Source: Candidatus Aenigmatarchaeota archaeon (GTDB taxonomy: Archaea > Aenigmatarchaeota > Aenigmatarchaeia > Aenigmatarchaeales > JACQIB01). From it: 46,537 bases of DNA. Shown here piece by piece: positions 7,254-45,875 of the stretch; position 1 is the stretch's first letter, and every line of letters starts with the position of its first letter. Under the pieces are notes generated by a model. That model was not told where the DNA came from and did not search any database. It saw nothing but the letters and a program-made list of their open reading frames with translations. Location of the stretch: assembly GCA_046760225.1 (NCBI GenBank), contig JBHIDR010000003.1, positions 1-46,537 of the forward strand, read 5' to 3'. The position numbers and the translations under genes are program-made.

Positions 7254-7436
7254 ATGGCAAAGTGCAGCTTCTGCAAGATAAATGTTGAACAGGGCACAGG
7301 AAAGATGTTTGTGAGGAACGACGGCAAGATATTCTACTTTTGCGGTTCCAAGTGCCAGAAGAACATGCTCATGCTCAGAAGGGTCCCGGAAAGGCAGAAC
7401 TGGATAACAAAAAAGAAAAAGACCAAGAAAACCTAA
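7254..7436 (+). CDS. rpl24e: 50S ribosomal protein L24e
   Basis: CSFC..GTGKMFVRNDG..FCGSKC zinc motif. Confidence 0.96.
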   Translation: MAKCSFCKINVEQGTGKMFVRNDGKIFYFCGSKCQKNMLMLRRVPERQNWITKKKKTKKT

Positions 7437-8959
7437 AGCCTTTCCTCCAATAACTTCTCAGTAAGGGAGCGCTTCCTTTTCTTAGCTGTTTTTTTGTTTG
7501 GCTTTAGGCCTGCCTTTTTTAGGGCAATTTCCCAAGAACCGAATCTTTTTCTATAAAGATACTGGTTTGGTATGGACTTGTCTGTATTTAGTTCTCCTTT
7601 TAGTGGTGTTCTTCCGAGCTCTTCTGCTTTTTTCCTGAGGAAATCAAGGAGTTCTTGATCAGTGTATTTCTTTTTGTACACCCTCATATACGGTTCCAGG
7701 CCTGCTTCCTTTACTGCATTCTTCCAAGAGCCAAATCTCTTGTAATAAACACCTGGGTATGGCATAGAGTCATCCTTAATTACTTCTTCTATAGTTGGTG
7801 TTCTTCCGAGTTCTTCGGCTTTATCTTTAAGAAGCTCTAGCAGTTCCTCGTCTGTGTAGTCCTTTCGCTCACAATTGATATCCAGACCTGCTTCTTTTAA
7901 AGCCTTGTTAAAGGAGCCGAACCTTTGATTATAAGTATGTGCACTTGGTATGGACTTGTCCTTGTTCATTTCCATTGTGGTTGGTGGTCTTCCAAGCTCC
8001 TTTGCCTTTTCCTTAAGAGCTTTAATGAGCTCTTCGTTTGAGTATTCTCGGTATTTTGATTCTAATCCTGCTGCTTTTAAGGCACTGTTCCAGGAACCAA
8101 AATGTTTACAATAAGTATTTACACCTGGCATGTTTTTGTCTGTTTCTATTTCTCTTGCAGTTGGTGCTCTACCCAGATCATCTGCCTTATGCTGGAGAAC
8201 TTCAATAAGCTTCTCTTGTGTATAATTATGTATTTCTAAGCATGCTTCTTCTAGGGCATTGTTCCAAGAGCCAAATTTTCTCATATAGGTACTTGAACGT
8301 GGCATGGATTTGTCTCTGTCTATTTCTCTTTTACTCGGCGTCTTGCCCAGCTCCTTGGCTTTGTTTTGTAAGAGCTCGATGAGCTCTTGTTCCGAATATT
8401 CGTGTTTAAAATCTCTATTTAATTCTATACCTGCTGCTTCAAGGGCTTTGTTATAGGAACCAAACCATTTTATGTAGGTAGACGGATTTGGCATTGACTT
8501 GTCCGCTTTTATATCTTCTGTAGTCGGTGTCCTGCCCAGTTCTTCTGCCTTTTTCTGAAGATATTCTATGAGTTCTTCCTTTGAATAATATTCACGGTTC
8601 CTGTCCAAGCCTGCTTCTTTCAGGGCGTTGGTTAAGGAACCAAACCTGTACCGATAAGTAGTTGAAGATGGTATTGATTTGTCTGCAGTTATTTCTTTTT
8701 GGGTTGGTGTTCTACCCAGTTCTTTTGCTTTTTTCTTGAGAAGCTCTAGTAGTTCCTGATCTGAATAATATTCCTTATTAACATTCAAACCTGCTGCTTC
8801 CAGGGCCTTGTTATAAGAACCGAATGTTTTTGTGTAGATATATACAGAAGGTATGTCTTTGTCCGCGTTTACTTCTCTTCTAGTGGGTACTCTGCCTAAC
8901 TCTTCTGCCTTCTCTTGTAGTTTCTCGATAAGATAGTCATCAGTATATTTTTCACTCAT
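7433..8959 (-). CDS. Protein of 8 tandem ~60-aa homing-endonuclease-associated (HNH_repeat-like) repeats, no nuclease domain
   Basis: Eight copies of Y(S/T)xxELxxxLxxKAxELG(R/K)xPTxxExxxDKS(I/M)PxxxxYxxxFGS(W/Y/F)NxALxxAGL; ATG 8959 follows GGTGA; family name from recall. Confidence 0.85.
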   Translation of the reverse strand: MSEKYTDDYLIEKLQEKAEELGRVPTRREVNADKDIPSVYIYTKTFGSYNKALEAAGLNVNKEYYSDQELLELLKKKAKELGRTPTQKEITADKSIPSSTTYRYRFGSLTNALKEAGLDRNREYYSKEELIEYLQKKAEELGRTPTTEDIKADKSMPNPSTYIKWFGSYNKALEAAGIELNRDFKHEYSEQELIELLQNKAKELGKTPSKREIDRDKSMPRSSTYMRKFGSWNNALEEACLEIHNYTQEKLIEVLQHKADDLGRAPTAREIETDKNMPGVNTYCKHFGSWNSALKAAGLESKYREYSNEELIKALKEKAKELGRPPTTMEMNKDKSIPSAHTYNQRFGSFNKALKEAGLDINCERKDYTDEELLELLKDKAEELGRTPTIEEVIKDDSMPYPGVYYKRFGSWKNAVKEAGLEPYMRVYKKKYTDQELLDFLRKKAEELGRTPLKGELNTDKSIPNQYLYRKRFGSWEIALKKAGLKPNKKTAKKRKRSLTEKLLEERL

Positions 8960-19422: not shown

Positions 19423-22400
19423 ATGACCAAAAAAATCGACCCAAGGCTTATTCCCGAGGTCAACATAGGTACGGTTGGACACTGAGCAACTTGCGGGTTG
19501 CTTGGCTAAAAACGTGGACCACGGGAAATGCGTTGCATTAGATGAAGATATGTTTATTAATAATAAGCTAATTTCAGGACAGGAATTAATGGACTTAGCA
19601 AAATCTAAAGGGAATATTGTTTTTTCAAAGAAAAATGAATGGCTATACAACATTCCAAATCTTTATACTTATAGTCTTGATTCTGAATTACAAACTGTCA
19701 GAACGAAAGCACAAGTATTTATACAGAAATATGAAGGGCCCATTCTTAAAATGATTACAAAAAATGGTAAAAGTATAAAGGCAACTAAAGAACATCCTTT
19801 GCTAATAAATGAAGGCGGTAATTTAAAATGGAAAAAAATGAAAGAGATTAAAGTTGGGGATTATATTGCTGTTTCGAATTTGGGTACATTCCCTAGTAAA
19901 ATAAAACTTAAAAATAGTTATCTCAAGGAACTAAGAAAAAGGTATCCATTAGTTATGACAAATATTGATTATAACAAACTTAAAGAAAAGACGGGAAACT
20001 TCGTTAATTTCTCTATGTTAAATGAAAAGGAATTTAGTACTTTGCGTATTTTGGGTAATTTTTCTTTAAGAGAAATAGCAAAGGCGACAAATTTTTCTTA
20101 TTCATGGATTCAGAAGGCCCTAGGCCAAAAAAGGAAAACTACAAATAATGTTAAATTAGAACTATCAAAGTTTTTCAAAAGTAATAAACATAGAATAGTA
20201 AGACTTTCTAAAAACGAAATATTGGTTGGTTATAAATCTCGCCATTCTGGAAAAAATTATACTAAATTCAAAAACATAAAGATTATAGATCAGGATATAG
20301 TAAAATGGTTTGCTTTCTTGCACGCAGAAGGAAATACTCATTATAAAAGAATAGTAGTTGTTCAGAAAAATTATCCCGAATTATTAGAAGAGTTTGAAAA
20401 GATATCTAAAAGCATATTTGGAATTGAATCTAAAATCGCATTCGGAAATAATGATGTTAAAAGATGTGAATTATATTCAAAACCGTTTATTGAATATATA
20501 TGTTTAAGGTTTGGACTTAAGATTGGGGCATCAAAGAAATCGCCTATTTGTAACTGGATACTTTCTCTGCCACCAAACCTTCAAGCTTTATTTCTAAAAT
20601 ATTTTTTTGCTTTAGAGTGTGATGTAAGAAAAAATTCAATAAAAATAACTCAAATTAATAAAAGAAATATAAATATTATCTCTACTATCTTGCACAATTT
20701 TGGAATAGAACATCACCTAAAAGAGGGTGTAAGAAAGAATCGTAATATAGAATATAGTTTACGCATAGAAGGAAAGCACAACCTTAGAAGATTTATAGAA
20801 AAAATAGGTATTTATGATAAAAACAAATCGAGAAGAGTTAAAGCGTACCTAAAAACAATTAAGCCTACAAACCCACCATCATACTCACTTGTTCCGATAA
20901 ATCCGAACATCTTGATGGAACTTTCACAAATTTTACCTAATTTCACTCTTAAAGAAAACTATTACTATTATGCGAATGGAAAGATAACCAAAATTAGATT
21001 AAATAAGATAGTTAAGGATATCGCTTTATGGTTGAAAGAATCGGAGAAGCTTAAAGATAAGGGAGATTTATATACTATAGTTAAAAATTTTAAGATTCCT
21101 CAAACAACATTAGCAAGAAAAATCAATTCTTCAAAATCTATAGTTAATAAGATACTGAAAAATAAATACAAAAACAAAATTGTAAGGAGCAAGTTAAAAG
21201 ATACTATAAAACAGTTGGCAGAAGATAAAACTAAAAGAACTGAGATTATTTATCAAAACCTTAGTTTGTTAGCATCTCCTTTGATACGTTGGGATAAAGT
21301 AAATAGAATAGAACACTTGCATTATAACGACTATGTTGTTGATTTGTTTGTACCAAAGTATCATAACTTCGTAGGAGGATTTGGTGGTATAGTATGTCAT
21401 AACAGCACCCTTATAGAAGCAATTTCTGGCCGCTGGCCTGCCCTGCATTCTGAAGAGCTGAAAAGGGGAATCACAATAAAGCTCGGTTATGCTGATGCAA
21501 CAATATACAGGTGCCCGAAGTGTGAAAAGACGCTGAGCACAGACAAGTGCCTTGGCTGCATGGAAAAAGCAGAGCTGTTGCGCACAATCTCCTTTGTTGA
21601 TGCTCCTGGGCATGAGACACTCATGGCAACTGTGCTTGCAGGTGCCAGTTTGATGGATGGTGCACTGCTCATAATTGCTGCAAATGAGAAATGCCCTCAA
21701 CCGCAGACAGCCGAGCACCTCATGGCACTTGACATCAGTGGGATAAGAAATATCATAATAATCCAGAACAAGGTAGATCTTGTTGATGAGGAAAAAGCAA
21801 TGGAGAACTACAAGCAGATAAAGGAGTTTGTGAAAGGAACTGTTGCAGAGAACGCACCCATAATACCTGTTTCTGCGCAGCAGAAGATAAACATAGATTC
21901 TGTTCTTGAGGCAATACATAAAATCATGCCCACACCAGAAAGGAAGCCAGAAGCAAACCCAAAGATGCTGGTTGTGAGGAGCTTTGACATAAACAAGCCA
22001 GGTACAGAACCACCAAAGCTCAATGGTGGGGTTCTTGGTGGTGCAATAATAGAAGGAAAGCTTAAGAAAGGTGATGAAATAGAGGTTGCACCAGTAAAGA
22101 TAAAGGACAAATGGCGCAGCATCACAACAAAGATAAAGGGCCTGCAGAAGGCAGGCAAGAACCTTGATGAAGCAGGGCCAGGAGGACTGGTTGGGGTGAT
22201 GACAACACTTGACCCAAACCTCACAAAGGCTGACTATCTTGCAGGCAGTGTTGTTGGCCTGCCTGGCAATCTTCCCTCAATCTCAAACTCCCTGAGATTT
22301 GAAGCACATGTTTTCGAGGGAATACAGCCCATAAAGATGGGAGAGCTGCTCATGATAAACGTGGGTACATCCAGGACAGTTGGGGCTGTGGATTCAATCA

Positions 22401-22522
22401 AGAAAGGAATTGTTGAGACCAGCCTGAAGCTGCCTGTTGTTGTAAGTGCTGGTGAAAGGGCTGCAATAAGCAGGAGACTTGAGGACAGGTGGAGGCTAAT
22501 CGGCTGGGGAATTCTTAGGTAG
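19423..22522 (+). CDS. eif2g: Translation initiation factor aIF2 gamma; join(19423..19480,19512..22522), contains an intein; mature ~397 aa
   Basis: MTKKIDPRLIPEVNIGTVG-H-VDHGK/STL, HSEELKRGITIKLGYA, FVDAPGHE, QNKVD, RWRLIGWG. Confidence 0.95.
19481..19511 (+). other. 31-nt BHB-type mRNA intron in aIF2-gamma
   Basis: TTGG AC^A CTGAGCAAC TTGCGG GTTGCTTGG CTAA AA^A CGT: central helix TTGG/CTAA, 9-bp inner stem, in-frame TGA 19483-19485. Confidence 0.9.
19529..21403 (+). mobile_element. Intein (625 aa) with LAGLIDADG-type endonuclease in aIF2-gamma P-loop
   Basis: GK/CVALDE start, ATKEHPLL block B, FLHAEG motif, ...GIVCHN/S end; strongly AT-rich. Confidence 0.94.
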
Positions 22523-24941: not shown

Positions 24942-25002
24942 ATCTACAGCACCAATTTCTTGATATCCCGCGATGGCTTAGTCTGGTAGAGCGACCGGCT
25001 GT

Positions 25003-25653
25003 GCGGTGAGAAAGCATGACGACACTAAAACCTATAATAGAACAACAAGGTACAGTTTCAGAAGCAAAGGCTAGAATATTGGCGAACCTCAAGGCTGATG
25101 GAAGTACATGCAGAAGCGGTACGAACTATACAAAAAAATATGAGGTACGTGATGCCGAGCAACTTAATAGGTTTGCCAAAGACCTGAAACATGTATATGG
25201 GCTGAACATAAAGCGCATGCTTAACACATCAGGAATAACAGGAATGCCCATAGAAGCTGTATACCTTAGGTCCAAATTAGCATTTGAAGATTTGCAGAAA
25301 TTTGGACGCTTCAGGTCAGAAGACTGGAATGTACCTCAGCAGATAAAAAACTCTTCCAAGCAAGTTAAGGCCGCCTTTTTAATGGCCTTTTTTGATGACG
25401 AAGGATCTGTTATCAAATCGAGAAGGGAAATACGCCTTTACTCGATAAATATTGATGGCCTTAATGAAATAGCAAAGCTGCTTGAAGAGTTTGAAATAAA
25501 GTGCAGTATACGAAGTGGTTATGGAAAACGAAGAAATGTGTTTGCCATTATAATTCGTGGCGTAGAAAACCTTGAGAGGTTTTCAAAACATATAGGTTTT
25601 GGTGTTAAGACTAAAAAAAGAAAACTAAAAAGTATGCTTTCCACTGTGGCCAA
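25003..25653 (+). mobile_element. 651-nt relaxed-BHB tRNA intron at 35/36 encoding a LAGLIDADG endonuclease
   Basis: Central helix GGCT/GGCC, 3' bulge AA^A, long closing stem GCGGTG-A-GAAAGCATG / TATGCTTTC-CACTGT. Confidence 0.82.
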
Positions 25654-25684
25654 AGGCGAGCACGCTAAGTGCTTGTTGCGTTAG
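25016..25684 (+). CDS. Intron-encoded double-motif LAGLIDADG homing endonuclease
   Basis: ILANLKADG and FLMAFFDDEG motifs; SD GGTGAG; 214 aa if read from circular intron, 222 aa from precursor. Confidence 0.9.
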   Translation: MTTLKPIIEQQGTVSEAKARILANLKADGSTCRSGTNYTKKYEVRDAEQLNRFAKDLKHVYGLNIKRMLNTSGITGMPIEAVYLRSKLAFEDLQKFGRFRSEDWNVPQQIKNSSKQVKAAFLMAFFDDEGSVIKSRREIRLYSINIDGLNEIAKLLEEFEIKCSIRSGYGKRRNVFAIIIRGVENLERFSKHIGFGVKTKKRKLKSMLSTVAKGEHAKCLLR

Positions 25685-25697
25685 CACTCGCTCGGAA
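25656..25697 (+). other. 42-nt tRNA-Tyr intron at canonical 37/38
   Basis: Inner stem GCGAG/CTCGC, CTG/CGG central pairing, 3' bulge AA^A. Confidence 0.82.
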
Positions 25698-25748
25698 ACC
25701 GGTAGATCGGGAGTTCGAATCTCCCTCGCGGGACCATTTGTGATTTTT

Positions 25749-26394: not shown

Positions 26395-26554
26395 TGGTCG
26401 CGGTCAAAACGGAGTGGCAAGATCCGTTCCCGTTCCGAAACATCCTTCAGAGAAGCTGCACCTTACCTGGAGGGTGAGGAAACACGGTAATGAATCGCTC
26501 CAGTGATCTGGACTGTACTGTGGAAAACATGGGAAATCCAGGACGCTGCGACCA
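26395..26554 (+). rRNA. rrf: 5S rRNA with 43-nt intron; join(26395..26439,26483..26554), 117 nt
   Basis: Helix I TGGTCGCGG/CTGCGACCA, helix II GGAGTGG/TCGCTCC, loop C CCCGTTCCGAAC-ACGG restored after removal, loop E TGTACT...GGGAAA. Confidence 0.9.
26440..26482 (+). other. 43-nt BHB-type intron in 5S rRNA loop C
   Basis: CCGT TCCG AA^A CATCCTTCAG..CTGGAGGGTG AGGA AA^C ACGG: outer 4 bp, central 3 bp + G.A, 10-bp inner stem. Confidence 0.85.
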
Positions 26555-26830: not shown

Positions 26831-26938
26831 GCCCGGGTAGTATGTCTTGGTGTGGCATTTCACCCGAGAGCTAAAAGTGGTCTAGTATCTCGGCCTGTCG
26901 AGTCGAGGACCTGGGTTCAAATCCCAGCCCGGGCGCCA
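26831..26938 (+). tRNA. tRNA-Asp(GTC) with 32-nt D-arm intron (26844..26875, position 13/14)
   Basis: GCCCGGG/CCCGGGC acceptor, G73, CCA, loop CTGTCGA; intron TAGT AT^G TCTTGG..CCGAGA GCTA AA^A. Confidence 0.92.
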
Positions 26939-32735: not shown

Positions 32736-35209
32736 TAGACCAGATTGATTTCCAATTGCTTTCGCCAACAATGGTAAAGAAGATTGCAAAAGCAGAAATA
32801 ACAAGGCCCGAGCTTTATGACAATGACGGTTTCCCAATAGAGGGCGGAGTAATGGACCCGAGACTGGGCATAATAGACCCTGGGCTCAGGTGCAGGACAT
32901 GCGGACAGACAATAGGAAACTGTTTCGGCCACTTCGGTTATGTAGAGCTGGTAAGGCCGGTTATCCATGTACTGTACTCAAAACTGATTTACAGGATACT
33001 GAGAGTAATGTGCAATGAGTGCTCAAGGATAATCACCACATCAACAACAACAAGACCAAAGAAGTGCACGCACTGCGGTACTGAACAGAAGGCCATAAAG
33101 TTCCAGAAGCCCTACACATTCCTGGAAGATGAAAAAGCGCTGACAACAATGGAAGTCAGGGAGAGGCTGGAAAAAATACCTGACGAGGACCTTAAGCTTC
33201 TGGGCTTCAGGGGAGGAAGACCAGAATGGCTCATAATAACACTCATGCCTGTGCCGCCTGTAATAACCAGGCCATCAATAACCCTGGAAACAGGCGAAAG
33301 GTCAGAAGATGACCTGACGCACAAGCTGGTGGACATAATAAGAATCAACCAGCGACTAAGGGAAAACATTGACATAGGTGCGCCGGACTTCATAATAGAA
33401 GACCTGTGGGAACTGCTGCAGTACCATGTTGCAACTTTCTTTGACAACACCTTATCAGGAATACCTGCTGCAAGGCACAGGAGCGGAAGACCATTGAAAA
33501 CTCTGGCTGACAGGTTGAAATCAAAGGAAGGAAGGTTCAGGCAGAACCTTGCAGGAAAGAGGGTGAACTTCTCAGCAAGAACAGTAATATCACCTGATCC
33601 CTACATAAGCATCAATGAGGTGGGCATTCCGAGGTCCATAGTAAGGGAGCTCACAATCCCATTGAGTGTATGGGAACACAATGTGGAAAAGCTGAGGGAA
33701 ATCATTCTGAACGCGCCTGTATGGCCGTCTGCAAACTATGTAGTAAGGCCTGATGGCAAGAGGAAGAAGATAACAGAAGAAAACAAGGAAGAGGTCGCCC
33801 AGGAGATATCACCTGGCTATATCATTGAGAGGCATGTGAGGAACGGTGACATTGTGCTCTTCAACAGACAGCCCTCACTGCACAGGATGTCCATAATGGC
33901 CCACAGGGTGAGGGTGACACCATGGAGGACATTCACAATGAACCTGTGCGTGTGCCCGCCCTATAATGCTGATTTTGATGGAGACGAGATGAACCTGCAT
34001 GTGCTGCAGACAGAAGAGGCGCGCGCAGAAGCGCGGCTACTGATGAGCGTGCAGAACCACATAAGGAGCCCGAGGTTCGGAGGACCAATCATAGGATGCG
34101 AGCATGACCATGTTTCAGGAGCCTACCTGCTTACAAAGAAGGAAACCGAGCTCTCGAGGAAGGATGCCTTCTACCTGCTTTCCCAGATAGGGGTTGATGC
34201 AGAGCTACCGAGCAAAAAGAAAATATCCGGCAAGGAACTGTTCTCCATGCTCCTTCCGAAAGGACTTAACATGGAATTCAAGGCAAAGGTCTGCGGATGT
34301 GAAAAATGCATAAAGGGGACGTGCCCGAATGACGGTTATGTTGTAATAAGGAACGGAAAACTTGAAAGGGGTGTGATAGACAAGAAGGCAATAGGAAGGG
34401 AGGCAGGAAAGGTCATTGACAGGATTGAAAGGGAGTATGGTACAGAAGAGGCGCACAAGTTCATTGACAGGGTATCACTCCTTGGGATAATTTTCCTTGA
34501 GAAGCACGGATTCACAATAGGGCTTGATGATATTGACCTGAACATCAGCACACTGGAAAAAATAAAAAGGGAAATTGAAAAGGGAGTAGTTGGTGCCAAC
34601 CAGCTGATTGAGGATTATGCCAACAACAGGATCGAAGTCCTGCCAGGAAGGGATGCGAAAGGCAGTTTTGAAGCGCACACACTAAAGCTGCTTGCAAACC
34701 TGACAGACTCGATTGGAAAAATAGTTGCATCAGACCTTGTTGAAAACAGCGCTGTTGTCATGGCAAAATCCGGTGCCCGCGGCCACATAACACACCTTGC
34801 ACAGCTGAGCGGAATACTGGGACAGCAGCATGTGCTCGGTGAGAGAATACACAGGGGATTCAGGGGGAGGACGCTGTCGCACTTCAAAGCCGGGGACCTG
34901 ACCCCGATGGCGCACGGTTTTGTGGTGAGCGCATTCAAGCACGGACTAAATCCGTTTGAATTCTTTTTCAATGTGTTGAGCGGAAGGGAAGGCCTCATGG
35001 ACAAGTCACTGAGGACAAGGCACAGCGGTTATCTGGAAAGAAGGCTGATGAACGCGCTACAGGACCTGAAAGTGGAATATGACGGTACAATCAGGGACAA
35101 CAGGAAGGTCATAATCCAGTTCAAGCCAGGTGAGGACGGCATTGATCCAGCAAAATCAGACTGGGGAGCAATAGATGTTGATGAAATAATAAAGGGTGTT
35201 GCCAAATGA
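32732..35209 (+). CDS. rpoA1: RNA polymerase subunit A' (Rpo1N)
   Basis: CFGHFG, GKRVNFSARTVISPD, YNADFDGDEMN. Confidence 0.97.
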   Translation: MIDQIDFQLLSPTMVKKIAKAEITRPELYDNDGFPIEGGVMDPRLGIIDPGLRCRTCGQTIGNCFGHFGYVELVRPVIHVLYSKLIYRILRVMCNECSRIITTSTTTRPKKCTHCGTEQKAIKFQKPYTFLEDEKALTTMEVRERLEKIPDEDLKLLGFRGGRPEWLIITLMPVPPVITRPSITLETGERSEDDLTHKLVDIIRINQRLRENIDIGAPDFIIEDLWELLQYHVATFFDNTLSGIPAARHRSGRPLKTLADRLKSKEGRFRQNLAGKRVNFSARTVISPDPYISINEVGIPRSIVRELTIPLSVWEHNVEKLREIILNAPVWPSANYVVRPDGKRKKITEENKEEVAQEISPGYIIERHVRNGDIVLFNRQPSLHRMSIMAHRVRVTPWRTFTMNLCVCPPYNADFDGDEMNLHVLQTEEARAEARLLMSVQNHIRSPRFGGPIIGCEHDHVSGAYLLTKKETELSRKDAFYLLSQIGVDAELPSKKKISGKELFSMLLPKGLNMEFKAKVCGCEKCIKGTCPNDGYVVIRNGKLERGVIDKKAIGREAGKVIDRIEREYGTEEAHKFIDRVSLLGIIFLEKHGFTIGLDDIDLNISTLEKIKREIEKGVVGANQLIEDYANNRIEVLPGRDAKGSFEAHTLKLLANLTDSIGKIVASDLVENSAVVMAKSGARGHITHLAQLSGILGQQHVLGERIHRGFRGRTLSHFKAGDLTPMAHGFVVSAFKHGLNPFEFFFNVLSGREGLMDKSLRTRHSGYLERRLMNALQDLKVEYDGTIRDNRKVIIQFKPGEDGIDPAKSDWGAIDVDEIIKGVAK

Positions 35210-37758
35210 AAGTAAAGTCACTCAAAGAGCTGCCACCTAAGCTGCGGGAAGAAGCAAAGGAAAAGATGAAGGCATACAGATTAACTGCAGCGCAAAAGTC
35301 CAAGATCGAGAAAAAGATAATTGAAATGTACAACAAGAGCCTCTTTGAAGCAGGTGAAGCATTCGGCATGGTGGCTGCACAGAGCATATCTGAACCAGCT
35401 ACCCAGATGTGCGTTGACTATGATGAAAATGTGCTGACCAAGGATGCGGGTAGGATTGAAATAGTCAAGGTTGGTCATTTCATTGATCAAAATTTTGAAA
35501 GATTCGGATTCAAGAGGATAGGTGAGTATGAGGTCTGTGACCTGCCCAAACAGCAAAAGCTCTTTGTATTGAGCCTGAACCCAGAAGAGAAGATGGAATG
35601 GAGAAGGGTGATTGCGTGCAACAGGCACGAAAGCCCGGAAACCCTGATTAAAATAACAACAAGGTCTGGAAGGGAGATCACAGCAACAGACTTCCATTCC
35701 TTTGTAATAAGAAAGCACAACAAAATAGTTTCCATAGCTGGAAAGGAACTCAAGGTTGGGGACAGAATCCCTGCAATAAGGTATCTGCCTGAAAACTGCG
35801 CCAGCTTCGTAAACATAGGCGGTTTCCTCCCGCCCCAAATGAAAACCATCAGGGAAGAGGGGCGCATACGTTCTGTGCGAGGGCTGACGTCCCTGCCAGA
35901 GCAGATGACATTGGATGCTGCGTTTGGCTGGTTTATAGGCGCTTATTTGTCCGAGGGCCACTCCACAGGAAGCGAGCTTTGCATCTCCAATATTAACGAC
36001 GAATTCATATCAAATGTTAAGAATTTCTCAGAAGGCCTTAACCTTAATTATAAAGAATTCCTGCATCATAGAGGATTTGCACAAAGCCGTGACTTCAAAA
36101 TAAGGTCAACGCTTTTCTCCAATTTCATCGAAGCGGCATGCGGGACAGGTTCTGGAGAAAAGAAGGTTCCAGATTTCGCTTACAGCGCTGATGAGAGATT
36201 TGTTGCAAGCTTGTTGAAGGGTTACTTCGATGGAGACGGTAATATCAGCGTGAAAAGGAAGATAATCAGGGCATCCTCAAACTCAAAGGAACTGATAGAT
36301 GGAATTGCACTGCTATTAACAAGGTTCGGAATATTCGCCCATAAGACCAAGGACAAGCAATTCGGCCTGCTTATTCCTTATAAATACGCACCGATATTCT
36401 TGTCTAAAATCGGTTCTGACATACCTGAGAAGGGTAAAAGGCTGAAAAGGTTGGCCGAGTTGTCGAAAAGGTTTTGGGATGATTATTCTCAAGACTTTAC
36501 AGACATGATTGGCGGTTTTGATGATGTACTGTACCAGGTTGCAAAGAAACTAAAATATCCGACCAGGTACATCAATAATTTTACCAAGCGTCAAAAAATA
36601 GGCAGGACAGCTCTTCACCGCTACATAAGACTTTTTGAAAGGCTAGCAAAAACAAAAGGTGTTGATATCGGAGGAGAACTCCAAATTTTAAAGCGGATGG
36701 CCAATTCCGATGTGGTTTGGGACGAGATAGCCAAGATAAGGCGTATAAAGCCTTCTTCGAGATATGTTTATGATTTTTCTGTGGAAGGGCTCAAAACCTT
36801 CACAACATTCGATGGGATTGTAACGCACAATACAATGAGAACATACCATGTTGCAGGAGCAGCACAGATAGAGGTGACGCTCGGCCTTCCAAGGATAGTG
36901 GAGATATTTGATGCAAGAAGGAGCCCGAAAACTCCCACCATGACTGTTTATCTAAAGAAGGCCTACAACACAAAGGACAGGGCCTACAAGATTGCTGCTG
37001 ATATCAGGGAAGTCAAAATGAATGATGTTGCTTCTTCATCTTCAATAGACCTTGTAAACGGTCAGATTGAAGTGATGATTGACCTGAAGGAGATGAGGGG
37101 CGCTGGCCTGAGCATGTCCAGGATAGAAAGCGTGCTGAAGGAATCATTGAAGGACGTTGATGTAAGGTCGAGAAAGGGAAGCTTCGTCATCAAACCCAAG
37201 GGAGACTATACTATAAAGGACATACAGAAGTTGAAGAAGAAAGTCCTTGACATGCACCTCAAAGGCCTGAAGGGCGTGTCGCAGGCTGTCATAAACCAGA
37301 GGGAGGGGGACTGGATCATAACCACTCTTGGCAGCAACTTTGCAAAGGTGCTCGGGGTGAAAGGAGTGAACCCTGCAAGGACAATGACAAACAACATCCA
37401 TGAAGTACAGAAGGTGCTCGGGGTCGAGGCTGCGAGAAACGCAATAATCAATGAAGCTGTAAACACGCTAAAGGACCAGGGCCTGGATGTCGATGTCAGG
37501 CACATCATGCTGGTTGCAGATGTCATGGTGGCGGACGGCACAATAAAGGCAATCGGAAGGTATGGGATTGCAGGAGCAAAGGGCTCGGTGCTCGCAAGGG
37601 CGAACTTCGAAGAGACAATCAAGCACCTTACCAAGGCTGCTGTGACTGCTGAGAGTGATAAGCTGGAAAGCATTGTGGAGAACGTTATGATAAACCAGGT
37701 TGTCCCTGCTGGAACAGGCATGTTCGACCTGATTTTCAGACCGCCACAAAAAAAGTAA
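35206..37758 (+). CDS. rpoA2: RNA polymerase subunit A'' (Rpo1C) containing an intein
   Basis: AAQSISEPATQM/TMRTYH, VTLGLPR, GVEAARN, RANFEET. Confidence 0.96.
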   Translation: MKVKSLKELPPKLREEAKEKMKAYRLTAAQKSKIEKKIIEMYNKSLFEAGEAFGMVAAQSISEPATQMCVDYDENVLTKDAGRIEIVKVGHFIDQNFERFGFKRIGEYEVCDLPKQQKLFVLSLNPEEKMEWRRVIACNRHESPETLIKITTRSGREITATDFHSFVIRKHNKIVSIAGKELKVGDRIPAIRYLPENCASFVNIGGFLPPQMKTIREEGRIRSVRGLTSLPEQMTLDAAFGWFIGAYLSEGHSTGSELCISNINDEFISNVKNFSEGLNLNYKEFLHHRGFAQSRDFKIRSTLFSNFIEAACGTGSGEKKVPDFAYSADERFVASLLKGYFDGDGNISVKRKIIRASSNSKELIDGIALLLTRFGIFAHKTKDKQFGLLIPYKYAPIFLSKIGSDIPEKGKRLKRLAELSKRFWDDYSQDFTDMIGGFDDVLYQVAKKLKYPTRYINNFTKRQKIGRTALHRYIRLFERLAKTKGVDIGGELQILKRMANSDVVWDEIAKIRRIKPSSRYVYDFSVEGLKTFTTFDGIVTHNTMRTYHVAGAAQIEVTLGLPRIVEIFDARRSPKTPTMTVYLKKAYNTKDRAYKIAADIREVKMNDVASSSSIDLVNGQIEVMIDLKEMRGAGLSMSRIESVLKESLKDVDVRSRKGSFVIKPKGDYTIKDIQKLKKKVLDMHLKGLKGVSQAVINQREGDWIITTLGSNFAKVLGVKGVNPARTMTNNIHEVQKVLGVEAARNAIINEAVNTLKDQGLDVDVRHIMLVADVMVADGTIKAIGRYGIAGAKGSVLARANFEETIKHLTKAAVTAESDKLESIVENVMINQVVPAGTGMFDLIFRPPQKK
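35410..36831 (+). mobile_element. Intein (474 aa) with LAGLIDADG endonuclease in RpoA''
   Basis: QM/CVDYDE start, ATDFHSF block B, GAYLSEG and GYFDGDG motifs, VTHN/T end. Confidence 0.95.
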
Positions 37759-41259: not shown

Positions 41260-41986
41260 CGGCCGATTCTCCTGTCCCTGTTCCTGTACCACCTGAGTAT
41301 CTTATTGAACTCCCTCCTACTGAAATCAGGCCAGAGCGTCTTTGTGAAGTATATCTCTGCATAGGCTGCCTGATAAAGCAGGAAGTTGCTCAGCCTGTGC
41401 TCGCCTCCTGTCCTTATTATGAGATCAACCGGCTCGTTCACCAGAAGGAACTTATTAAATGTATCCTCTGCAAGGGGCACGGTCTTGATTCCCTTTGAAA
41501 CAAGCTTTTTGGCTGAGTTGATTATCTCGAACTGGCTTCCGTAAGCAAGAAGTATGTTCAGCACACCCTGAGTATAGTTCCTGGTAGCGTTCATAACATC
41601 CTTGGCAGCCTGCCTCACGTCCTTCCTCCAGAGAGCAGAATTCCCGACTATTTTAATTCTCAGGTCCCGTTTCCTCATTCTCTTGTCTTTCAGAAAGCCC
41701 TTGAACTCCTTGTTATAAATCCCCCAGAGCTTGTCAACCTCTTTCTTGCTCCTATTCAGGTTCTCAGTAGAAAGCGCGTAAACACTGACCACCTTTATGT
41801 TGGGATCGCCTGCGCACCACTCAGCAACATCCTTGAGCTTCTGCACACCCTTTACATGGCCCCACCATACAGGCTTTCTGTGCTTTCGGGCATAACGCCT
41901 GTCTCCGGTTAGTATTCAAACTAAATACCGTCAGGTATTATTGCCAGATGAAGGTTAGCTTTTCTGCCAGTTACGTCATCTGTGAT
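41256..41986 (-). CDS. uppS: Polyprenyl (undecaprenyl) diphosphate synthase; complement join(41256..41902,41926..41986)
   Basis: LHLAIIPDG-N-RRYA restored on removing 23 nt; YALSTEN, DLIIRTGGEHRLSNF, WPDF, RRIGR; start tentatively ATC 41986 after GGAGGTGA. Confidence 0.9.
41903..41925 (-). other. 23-nt BHB-type mRNA intron in uppS
   Basis: Minus strand CCTG ACGG TA^T TTAGT TTGAAT ACTAA CCGG AG^A CAGG; in-frame TAG inside. Confidence 0.9.
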
Positions 41987-42945
41987 GCCATCACCTCCTG
42001 TACCTTTAAAGAGAAAAACTGCCTTATGAATTTTTCTATTTCCTCTTTGCGATAAATAATAAGCACATAGTTCACCGTTTTTGTACCATTTCTGAAGCCC
42101 TTATCTGTATAAATCCCAGATACTTTGATTCCATTATCATGGAATATATGCGCACATTCCTTTAATAACCTTTTGTTATGCTGCTTAATTCGTATATAAG
42201 GCTGCTTATTACCACCAATATGAATTGTGCCGTCTGCATCAAATAGTCCAGATAAAAACAATTTTTTGAGAAAATTAATTTTGATTATAGATGGCATACA
42301 CGTTTTGTTCTTTTTGCTACCTACTGGCATGCCACAAACTTTGGTTAAAAAGAGGTGTATAACTTTAGATCTTCCAATTAGTCTGTAAAAGTTTTTCTCT
42401 TTGAAAATCGGTGGGCTATAATTAAAAAGTTCTTTAAATATTTTTCTTAAAAAAATCAAATGAGCTATATTATCACCAGTTATTCTTATTTCAGCATTGT
42501 AAGTCGAGCCGTTGCTGATTAAGTTTTTCGGATTGGCTAAGTGACCGTCGCCCATTATGTAGCCAAGCAGATACGCTAACCGAGGTGTTAGAAATTTAGG
42601 AAGTGTATATTGCCTAGAGTTCGTGCAGCCAAACCAAATGGCTTTATCAAAGAGCTCATCTTTATCTGCACCTATAAATTTAACAAGCTTTAAGGCGTGA
42701 TAAATTGGTATACCAACATCACGCTTGCTCTCACCTATCCAGTAATTCAACCTTTTTACATCAACATTAAGAAATTGTGCCATCTCCTTTCTCTTACAGT
42801 TTGCTGCATTTCGCAGAAATTCTCTCATGCCATAAAGTCTTATAAAATCATTTCCTTTCGTTCCTTGTTCATTTGTATATAGCTTGTCTAAATAGCGAGG
42901 AAACTTCATGTTTGGTTCGTGAGGAATCGTAGCTACGTTACGCAT
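41971..42945 (-). CDS. Free-standing double-motif LAGLIDADG endonuclease with N-terminal HTH
   Basis: AYLLGYIMGDG and FLSGLFDADG; KEMAQFLNVDVKRLNYW HTH-like; no intein splice residues; AT-rich. Confidence 0.88.
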   Translation of the reverse strand: MRNVATIPHEPNMKFPRYLDKLYTNEQGTKGNDFIRLYGMREFLRNAANCKRKEMAQFLNVDVKRLNYWIGESKRDVGIPIYHALKLVKFIGADKDELFDKAIWFGCTNSRQYTLPKFLTPRLAYLLGYIMGDGHLANPKNLISNGSTYNAEIRITGDNIAHLIFLRKIFKELFNYSPPIFKEKNFYRLIGRSKVIHLFLTKVCGMPVGSKKNKTCMPSIIKINFLKKLFLSGLFDADGTIHIGGNKQPYIRIKQHNKRLLKECAHIFHDNGIKVSGIYTDKGFRNGTKTVNYVLIIYRKEEIEKFIRQFFSLKVQEVMASQMT

Positions 42946-44786: not shown

Positions 44787-44919
44787 AATATAATTCTGTA
44801 AATTCTTTTTATAAAGATTCTCTTTATAAAGAATCTGGTGCGGGAGGAGAGAGTTTCGCTTCCACCTTCGTGCACCGAAGGCGGTGCTTCGAACTCTCGA
44901 AGGGACTAACCCACAAGGC

Positions 44920-45768
44920 ATCTGAAAACTTAGATTTTATGAATGTCCTAAGCAACTTATCTAAAATATCCATCTTTCTGGAACCTACCCAATTACCTTT
45001 AACTACAATAGTCTCATCTGAAAAGCCTATAATCTTCTTGAATTTTCTTATATACTCTTCTTTATGTATAGCTATTTCATGTCTATGTGTTCTAAGTATA
45101 CAATCTACTCCAAGATCTCTATGCATTTTGTATATGTCTAGCAATACTTCATCATTGTAGCAAACTGCAACTAAGCTCCTACTCCCTTTATTTAAAAGCA
45201 CAGATCCTTCATCGTCCCAAAATGCTCTTAAAAATGCAATCTTATTTTGCTTGCTTCCTTTCAAAATTTCTCGAGGCACTGTTGTTGATGCTTTTGGATC
45301 TGATGTTGTATAAGCTGGCGTGTAACTTAAAAGGTCCTCTATTATTAGTTTCGAACGGAAAGTTGCAGTAATACAGTTCCACTTATCGACATATATGTAA
45401 GGTTTACTTAGACCATAGACCTTTTTGAAATCCCCTGTAAACTGTCGTATAAGACCTTTAGATTTATTTCCATAGCTTATTCTATATCTTTTAGGCATTA
45501 CATTTCCGTCAAACAAGCAATGGGCTATAATCCTTGTTTTCTCTATACTTAGACCTTTCTGAATCACTGGCCTTTCCTTTATACAAGTTCCTTTTAAATA
45601 CCTTTTAGCTGTATTTAATGAAATGTTTGTTTTTTCTGCAATCTCTTGCATTGTATGTTTTTTATTTCTAAGTCTAAACATTTCCTTTACTTTTTTCTTT
45701 GGCAAAGGTTTTGCGTATTTCCTTGCAAATGCAATTTGATTTTTCTTCATTGCTGTCATTTTCTCCAT
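44920..45768 (-). CDS. Intron-encoded HTH + double-motif LAGLIDADG endonuclease (283 aa from circular intron; 314 aa to 44824 on precursor)
   Basis: TMQEIAEKTNISLNTAKRYL HTH, IIAHCLFDG and FLRAFWDDEG motifs. Confidence 0.9.
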
Positions 45769-45786
45769 TTTTCACACCTAAGTTTA
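44920..45786 (-). mobile_element. 867-nt BHB tRNA intron encoding a LAGLIDADG endonuclease
   Basis: Strict BHB at 37/38; AT-rich interior filled by one ORF. Confidence 0.9.
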
Positions 45787-45875
45787 CCTCAACCTTGCAC
45801 CGTTGACCTGGCTTGGCGACTCCCGCATACAAACAAATATAATATGACAGTTTAAATAACTTATAGGGTGATGTA

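Follow-up and report, generated by a model that had tools for sequence, protein, structure and literature searches.

When the two ends of an excised tRNA intron are joined, can the joint itself supply the stop codon of the protein that the intron encodes? The locus that raises this question lies in the 46,537-nucleotide stretch of DNA analysed here (the window), from a tiny vent archaeon of the DPANN, where a tRNA-Leu(GAG) gene on the minus strand at 45826..44836 is divided into three exons by two introns. The first intron is filled almost entirely by an open reading frame (ORF) that reaches the last intron base without meeting a stop. The parts of the gene are the following:

45787..45826, minus strand: exon 1, tRNA-Leu(GAG) positions 1-37 with the anticodon GAG; its last base is G37
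44920..45786, minus strand: intron 1, an 867-nt BHB intron at 37/38
44888..44919, minus strand: exon 2, positions 38-59; its first base is G38
44853..44887, minus strand: intron 2, 35 nt, in the T-loop at 59/60
44836..44852, minus strand: exon 3, positions 60-73 and the encoded CCA

The unspliced gene was missed by both ARAGORN and Rfam. After removal of both introns, ARAGORN reports an 89-nt tRNA-Leu(GAG) including CCA, and the spliced sequence folds into a cloverleaf with a long variable arm; exon 2 is identical at 32/32 positions to the exon of a relative of the same family (G034). The gene appears to be the sole copy in this assembly. Intron 2 has the central helix TTCG/CGAA and the outer helix GAGAG/CTCTC, and an identical 35-nt T-loop intron is present in the tRNA-Leu(CAG) gene of the same genome (C1:53342..53508, locus L166), which has a separate insert in its variable arm and no intron at 37/38. 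The closest tRNA-Leu(GAG) relative (locus L171, on contig C16 of G034) carries a 17-nt insert in the 5' strand of its anticodon stem together with a different T-loop intron, and its 37/38 site is empty. A 'tRNA-Leu(gag)' reported by ARAGORN on contig C16 of the host's own genome turned out to be a wrongly assembled multi-intron tRNA and not a second copy.

The argument depends on where exactly intron 1 begins and ends. Its BHB motif is perfect, with 7/7 pairs in the outer helix (the anticodon stem lengthened to seven pairs), 4/4 in the central helix (positions 32-35 with TCAG, 44925..44922) and 10/10 in the inner helix, in which AAACTTAGGT is paired with ATCTAAGTTT. There are two 3-nt bulges, each cut after its second base, and the cuts G37|T and T|G38 give back a 7-nt anticodon loop. 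The intronic strands of the motif are located as follows:

45776..45785, minus strand: 5' strand of the BHB inner helix, AAACTTAGGT, including part of a Shine-Dalgarno-like motif
44922..44935, minus strand: 3' strands, with the inner helix at 44935-44926 and the central helix at 44925-44922

A second line of evidence comes from relatives with an intron-less tRNA-Leu(GAG), in which the junction is uninterrupted (...GGTTGAGG|GCCT...); the 37/38 site is empty in all four relatives in which the gene was found, namely G033 (same genus as the host), G034 and G029 (same family) and G037 (same order). Since the BHB motif and the empty sites are independent of each other, and since neither junction has a base in common, which leaves no slippage ambiguity, the boundaries are exact to the base. 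The intron thus starts with TAA (45786-45784) and ends after GAT (44922-44920), as a preliminary description of this DNA had stated, and the circle formed from it would measure 867 nt, or 3 x 289, also as described there. The emptiness of the site in 4/4 relatives points to a recent, lineage-specific gain. An orthologous intron was found neither by protein searches nor by a search for the exon-1 pattern over 371 genomes, the pattern matching only G037 and one paralogue. Intron 1 has 32.5% G+C against 43.9% for the genome, and the anticodon stem of this gene shows a compensatory change relative to the intron-less relatives (CAAGG/CCTTG against CTAGG/CCTAG). To judge from these comparisons, intron 1 is a real mobile tRNA intron that was acquired recently. 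The sequencing runs that contain the stretch are four metagenome DNA runs from a single study, with no RNA run listed; their contigs break at the tRNA exons and show three single-base differences. Two joints in these contigs that seemed to skip the intron belong to other tRNA-Leu genes, one of them with a 36-nt insert.

The ORF is the main content of the intron:

44920..45768, minus strand: ORF of 283 codons, encoding an HTH plus two-motif LAGLIDADG homing endonuclease; no stop within the intron

It runs from the ATG at 45768 to 44920 with no stop in the linear intron, in agreement with the preliminary description, and fills nt 19-867 of the intron (98% coding), overlapping the 3' strand of the splicing motif, so that bases 44922..44935 double as codons for the end of the protein (...SKFSD). 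The translated sequence matches the Pfam family LAGLIDADG_3 (PF14528) with 26.8 bits (cut-off 22.5, E = 6e-6) and, at its N-terminus, HTH_7 with 24.9 bits (cut-off 23.8). The motif acids lie in ...CLFDGN... (D87) and ...FWDDEGS... (E187) and are invariant in alignments of 20 and of 30 sequences; all invariant and nearly invariant residues of the family are kept, both catalytic acids included. The AF2 model has a mean pLDDT of 89.6 and a double alpha-beta-beta-alpha-beta-beta-alpha fold, and its Foldseek matches are intein endonucleases (TliVMA at E = 5e-9, and PI-PfuI), WhiA, I-DmoI and I-Tsp061I. A sequence search of the PDB gave weak matches only, and one of NCBIfam gave nothing useful. Relatives are plentiful in DPANN archaea: a word-based protein search found two, at 35-40% identity, an exhaustive search found 312 at E <= 0.001 with a best identity of 42%, and the profile has a match in 170/371 genomes of the class. 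By its conserved residues and its predicted structure, the ORF of intron 1 is an intact single-chain homing endonuclease. The four metagenome runs differ at one place within it (S148N, in one run).

The stop codons that could end this frame are these:

45784..45786, minus strand: junction stop TAA, intron nt 1-3; it stops the ORF only once the ends are joined
45772..45780, minus strand: further in-frame stops, TAG at 45780-45778 (nt 7-9) and TGA at 45774-45772 (nt 13-15)
44824..44826, minus strand: read-through TAA, which ends a 314-codon frame on the genome, 10 nt past CCA

Joining the ends in silico places TAA directly after codon 283. Between the following TAG and TGA stands the Shine-Dalgarno-like AGGTG (45779-45775, nt 8-12), and the ATG begins at nt 19, so that the 18 nt from stop to start hold three different in-frame stops and a putative ribosome-binding site that is paired with the last codons of the ORF. 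These three are the only stops of the circle in the ORF frame, all within nt 1-15; the remaining frames contain 30 and 28 stops. By intron composition, the probability that the first intron triplet is a stop is 0.088, and about 0.03 when multiplied by 1/3 for phase; that of at least three in-frame stops among the six codons that precede an ATG is 0.011, and triple stops precede 69 of the 16,937 ATGs of the genome. These figures, computed post hoc and on one case, are suggestive of more than coincidence. In the joined form the junction would lie in a 7-nt loop closed by a 10-bp stem, with -11.1 kcal/mol at 37 C; the stem is predicted to be melted at 80 C.

On the genome, again as the preliminary description had it, the frame stays open for another 31 codons, across exon 2, intron 2 and exon 3, as far as the TAA at 44826-44824, which sits in the loop enclosed by a 7-bp inverted repeat (AGATTCT/AGAATCT, read by eye). 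The two possible ends of the protein were compared with the family. The aligned stretches of homologues extend to query residues 273-279, leaving 0-6 residues of the homologue unaligned, and the family alignment likewise ends within a few residues of position 283. When the 314-residue read-through form was modelled with AF2, its last helix came out at residues 265-284, and the 31-residue tail, at pLDDT < 56 and without secondary structure, is predicted to be unstructured; low confidence would be expected there anyway, as the tail is not covered by any aligned sequence. By alignment and model, then, a 283-residue product would end at the natural C-terminus of the family, which is also where the predicted fold ends.

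The frame is nevertheless open on the genome for exactly those 31 codons, and the enzyme could be made, in step with transcription, from the linear primary transcript before splicing and trimming, as a protein of 314 residues with a tolerated floppy tail, in which case the junction TAA would be a coincidence; a stop in the first triplet does arise by chance with the probability of 0.088 given above. Such an origin has precedent within the family. Where relatives of the enzyme are encoded upstream of tRNA or 5S genes, the ORF often lacks its own stop and is terminated by a conserved TAG within the RNA gene, at tRNA positions 8-10, in the D-loop GGATAG, or in the 5S sequence GGCCATAG. This is so in eight of the 23 loci printed (L010, L016, L020, L031, L036, L056, L057 and L059) and in two of the seven printed ORFs of the host's own genome, one of which (on contig C72) stops at the U8-A9-G10 TAG of a tRNA-Pro, while the other (C16) runs about 28 codons into a tRNA-Gly. 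At L056 the 5' segment of the tRNA is duplicated, with one copy on each side of the ORF. An ORF with a borrowed stop requires a linear transcript for its translation and gives a product whose tail is encoded by the RNA gene; since the relatives' stops lie in RNA genes, such tails and translation from linear transcripts are common in the family, and linear read-through is a live rival to translation from the circle. Similar behaviour is seen in six related ORFs inserted in 23S rRNA genes (L097, L105, L106, L068, L117 and L122), five of which stop at a TAG or TAA inside one conserved stretch (...CCAGATGATCTAGCCCTGGGCA...), the sixth having an earlier TGA. As this stretch may be either exon or intron core, the six were left out of the comparator count given below.

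Several observations weigh on the other side. A ribosome translating the last codons and then the exons would unfold both the BHB motif and the tRNA body in the transcript of the apparently only tRNA-Leu(GAG) gene; the genomic stop lies past the mature 3' end and beside T-rich stretches (by eye), where the transcript may already have ended; the 31-residue tail is foreign to the family; and the three different in-frame stops of the 18-nt leader are left unexplained. Furthermore, trimming of the 3' end at CCA would remove the read-through stop, after which only the nascent transcript or the circle would have a stop, and the circle would be the sole long-lived species with a closed frame. On balance, we hold translation from the linear primary transcript to be possible and rather unlikely.

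The preliminary description had gone beyond this one intron, proposing the same design in two unrelated tRNA introns and, from this, selection for translation from circles. The wider proposal was examined with 181 gathered loci and the 83 contigs of the genome. An HMM scan and a BHB search covered 246 sequences (163 loci and the 83 contigs) and 185 endonuclease frames. A blind BHB scan near these frames returned 11,736 candidates, 735 of them strong, nearly all of which are chance matches in AT-rich DNA; a comparator was accepted only if ARAGORN called the spliced product, if the acceptor stem paired, or if inspection by eye bore it out. Nine distinct endonuclease-bearing tRNA introns were obtained, a number that is a lower bound because tRNAs with several introns can escape detection:

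24967..25736, plus strand: comparator intron in the window's own second tRNA
L005 (same sequence as L050), L006 and L008: comparator introns in initiator tRNA-Met
L018 and L048 (same sequence as L062): comparator introns in tRNA-Lys
L024: comparator intron in tRNA-Arg
L021: comparator intron in tRNA-Gln
L067: comparator intron in tRNA-Asn, boundaries set by eye and good to within 1-2 nt

All nine have a stop of their own, 10-80 nt before the 3' cut. This includes the window's other tRNA intron, whose ORF (25016..25684) has a TAG of its own, 11-13 nt short of the 3' cut, so that the shared design does not exist; the third, free LAGLIDADG ORF of the window (41971..42945) is not within a tRNA. 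The prediction that other endonuclease-bearing tRNA introns would have junction-derived stops likewise fails as a general claim, since 9/9 stop internally and circles need not supply a stop. One of nine distinct introns begins with a stop triplet, in line with the chance rate of 0.088. In several comparators the stop falls within the 3' strand of the inner helix or immediately ahead of it, and the ATG closely follows the 5' strand; given these compact internal stops, intron 1 is best described as the extreme of a compact design and not as a member of a junction-dependent class. A Shine-Dalgarno-like motif lies within the inner helix in five of eight independent tRNA-intron lineages, intron 1 included (leaders read by eye), which suggests that initiation is tied to the inner helix in these tRNA introns. 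Intron lengths that are multiples of three, seen at first in 5/5 cases, fell to 5/8 independent ones with L018 (883), L048 (839) and L067 (703), and the idea was dropped at a binomial P of about 0.09.

The second tRNA of the window (24967..25736, plus strand) has a 693-nt endonuclease intron whose best BHB has a central helix of 3/4 and an outer helix of 5/5 pairs; the corresponding cut gives the anticodon loop CTGTGCA (GTG, His). Its acceptor stem, with C1-G72 and A73, is of the Tyr type, and ARAGORN, with both cuts moved by 2, calls it Tyr(GTA). An ordinary tRNA-His with G-1:C73 is present on contig C6. Selfish elements abound in the window (7433..12730, minus; 19475..22522, plus; 35206..37758, plus; 41971..42945, minus). 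Three of its ORFs are composed of 'homing endonuclease associated repeats' (PF18780), the genes for eIF2-gamma and RNA polymerase A'' contain LAGLIDADG inteins, and a further LAGLIDADG gene is free-standing and has a promoter-like TATA stretch of its own. A 5S rRNA match at 26396..26554 (plus) is 159 nt long against a model of 120 positions and may have an insert, and at 26862..26935 (plus) there is a weak, odd tRNA match of 31 bits with acceptor-stem mismatches.

Homing endonuclease genes cycle between invasion and decay, and the missing stop of intron 1 could be read in that light, as a stop lost by mutation or deletion after the invasion from a gene that is now barely or no longer expressed, is decaying, and is under no selection for a stop. 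Two of the comparators are decayed (L008 by a frameshift, L048/L062 by internal stops), and intron 1 is restricted to this genome among the relatives checked and has no close homologue. What makes such decay improbable in our judgement is the state of the ORF itself, which is whole over 283 codons, keeps its invariant residues and both catalytic acids, is predicted by AF2 to fold with confidence, holds three stops in its frame as against 28-30 in the others, and shows a single difference across four metagenome runs.

For a circular message the cell would need enzymes to cut and to seal. The splicing endonuclease domain PF01974 was found in two places on contig C2 (E = 2e-24 and 2e-18) and RtcB (PF01139) on contig C35 (E = 1e-149), in an rtcB frame that is broken by a short intron-like insert. 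With two EndA-domain proteins and RtcB, both activities are available to this genome. The rtcB insert (contig C35, about 1630-1690, locus L167) is about 32 nt long with a 7-bp helix, GACTAAA/TTTAGTC, and disrupts the reading frame between ...GGISPGGIG and DINCGVR...; without it the conserved motif is whole again, and it looks like a BHB-type mRNA intron in the gene for the ligase that seals such introns. This interruption of rtcB counts against the circle as messenger. A second insert of 30 nt, in frame, lies just upstream.

The proposed course of events is as follows. The host endonuclease would cut the pre-tRNA at both bulges, RtcB would seal the exons, and RtcB would also close intron 1 into an 867-nt circle. 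Because this ligation would put TAA right after codon 283, the circle would be a complete message, with 849 nt of coding sequence, the stop codon and 15 nt of spacer that include the ribosome-binding site. Shine-Dalgarno initiation does not need a free 5' end. An internal start at AGGTG-N6-AUG would then yield the 283-residue enzyme. By cleaving the anticodon-loop sequence of intron-less tRNA-Leu(GAG) genes, this enzyme would spread the intron. In the 10-bp inner helix the last codons pair with the ribosome-binding site, and a ribosome that reaches the end of the ORF would thus open the helix for another round. Circles of this kind have been described: Danan et al. 2012 (PMC3326292) report that archaeal BHB introns occur as circles and that archaeal rRNA introns with an ORF form stable ones, and Legnini et al. 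2017 (PMC5387670) state that stable circular archaeal introns produce homing endonucleases, crediting Kjems & Garrett 1988 and Dalgaard et al. 1993. That the endonuclease of intron 1 is translated from the circularised intron is, in our estimate, a strong contender that still falls a little short of being probable.

A stricter form of this reading makes the circle an obligate messenger, all trimmed linear RNAs being without a stop. If RtcB ligation writes the stop codon, the endonuclease would come only from introns that have already been cleanly spliced out, which would spare the apparently sole tRNA-Leu(GAG) gene, and the terminating ribosome would unmask the ribosome-binding site and restart on a nuclease-resistant ring. 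We regard this stricter form as doubtful. The excised intron could also be read while still linear, as a message without a stop from which the ribosome is freed by archaeal rescue (Pelota/ABCE1). The linear intron does have the ribosome-binding site and the entire ORF. Non-stop messages are usually poor templates, however. Moreover, the archaeal BHB introns examined so far occur as circles, according to PMC3326292, and a linear stop-less message seems to us very improbable indeed.

Of the earlier proposal of selection for translation from circles, a part therefore stands. The intron anatomy, the family-like end of a 283-residue product and the presence of EndA and RtcB fit it; its restriction to one intron, with 9/9 others having an internal stop, does not. 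In sum, the junction-closed anatomy of intron 1 is confirmed to the base, the shared design proposed for two introns proves wrong, and the circle as messenger is plausible on the sequence.

The arrangement may be set beside known systems. The rRNA introns of I-DmoI (Desulfurococcus mobilis 23S), I-Tsp061I and I-Vdi141I are, like intron 1, BHB introns excised by the tRNA splicing endonuclease and are likewise nearly filled by a single-chain two-motif LAGLIDADG enzyme; they are reported to last as stable circles (PMC3326292 and PMC5387670). Intron 1 differs from them in its host, a tRNA (at 37/38), and in the N-terminal HTH of its enzyme. It probably also differs in having an ORF with no stop in the linear intron; the native stop is not mentioned in the accessible part of Nomura 2008 (PMC2602781). 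Ordinary archaeal tRNA introns at 37/38 share position, motif and processing enzymes with intron 1. They are short and non-coding, whereas intron 1 is 867 nt long and 98% coding, and the same tRNA-Leu(GAG) also has a typical short non-canonical intron, the 35-nt intron 2. The excised tRNA-Trp intron of Haloferax volcanii also has a function of its own after circularisation, as PMC3326292 describes; its cargo is a box C/D guide RNA, that of intron 1 a protein gene.

The closest parallel for the stop codon is circ-ZNF609, in which, as in intron 1, the in-frame stop is present only after circularisation, a stop upstream in the linear form turning into the terminator (PMC5387670). Circles of that type arise by back-splicing of a spliceosomal exon and use cap-independent eukaryotic initiation, while intron 1 would use RtcB-type tRNA-intron ligation and Shine-Dalgarno initiation; circ-ZNF609 has been demonstrated experimentally, and the circle of intron 1 is predicted from sequence. 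The free-standing LAGLIDADG genes beside DPANN tRNA and 5S genes belong to the same protein family (profile E-values down to 1e-98), and bases of the host gene likewise form the end of the ORF. Those genes lie outside the RNA gene and, unlike intron 1, cannot be circularised by splicing. Within the full-text literature, from which subscription journals are largely absent, we found no paper on a LAGLIDADG gene in an archaeal tRNA BHB intron and none on an archaeal intron whose stop is made by the junction.

Archaea have been known since the 1980s to contain stable circular introns that carry endonuclease genes, and reviews call these circles translated, which the sequence of those introns does not require. 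Independently of the circle question, the locus provides a clear homing-endonuclease intron in an archaeal tRNA gene with exact empty sites. If the reading of the circle as messenger is true, a frame closed by ligation would be a genomic signature of a circle that serves as messenger, and intron 1 would offer a simple natural model for testing the translation of circular RNA in a system of prokaryotic type. It would also show a selfish gene that links its own expression to its harmless exit from an essential tRNA.
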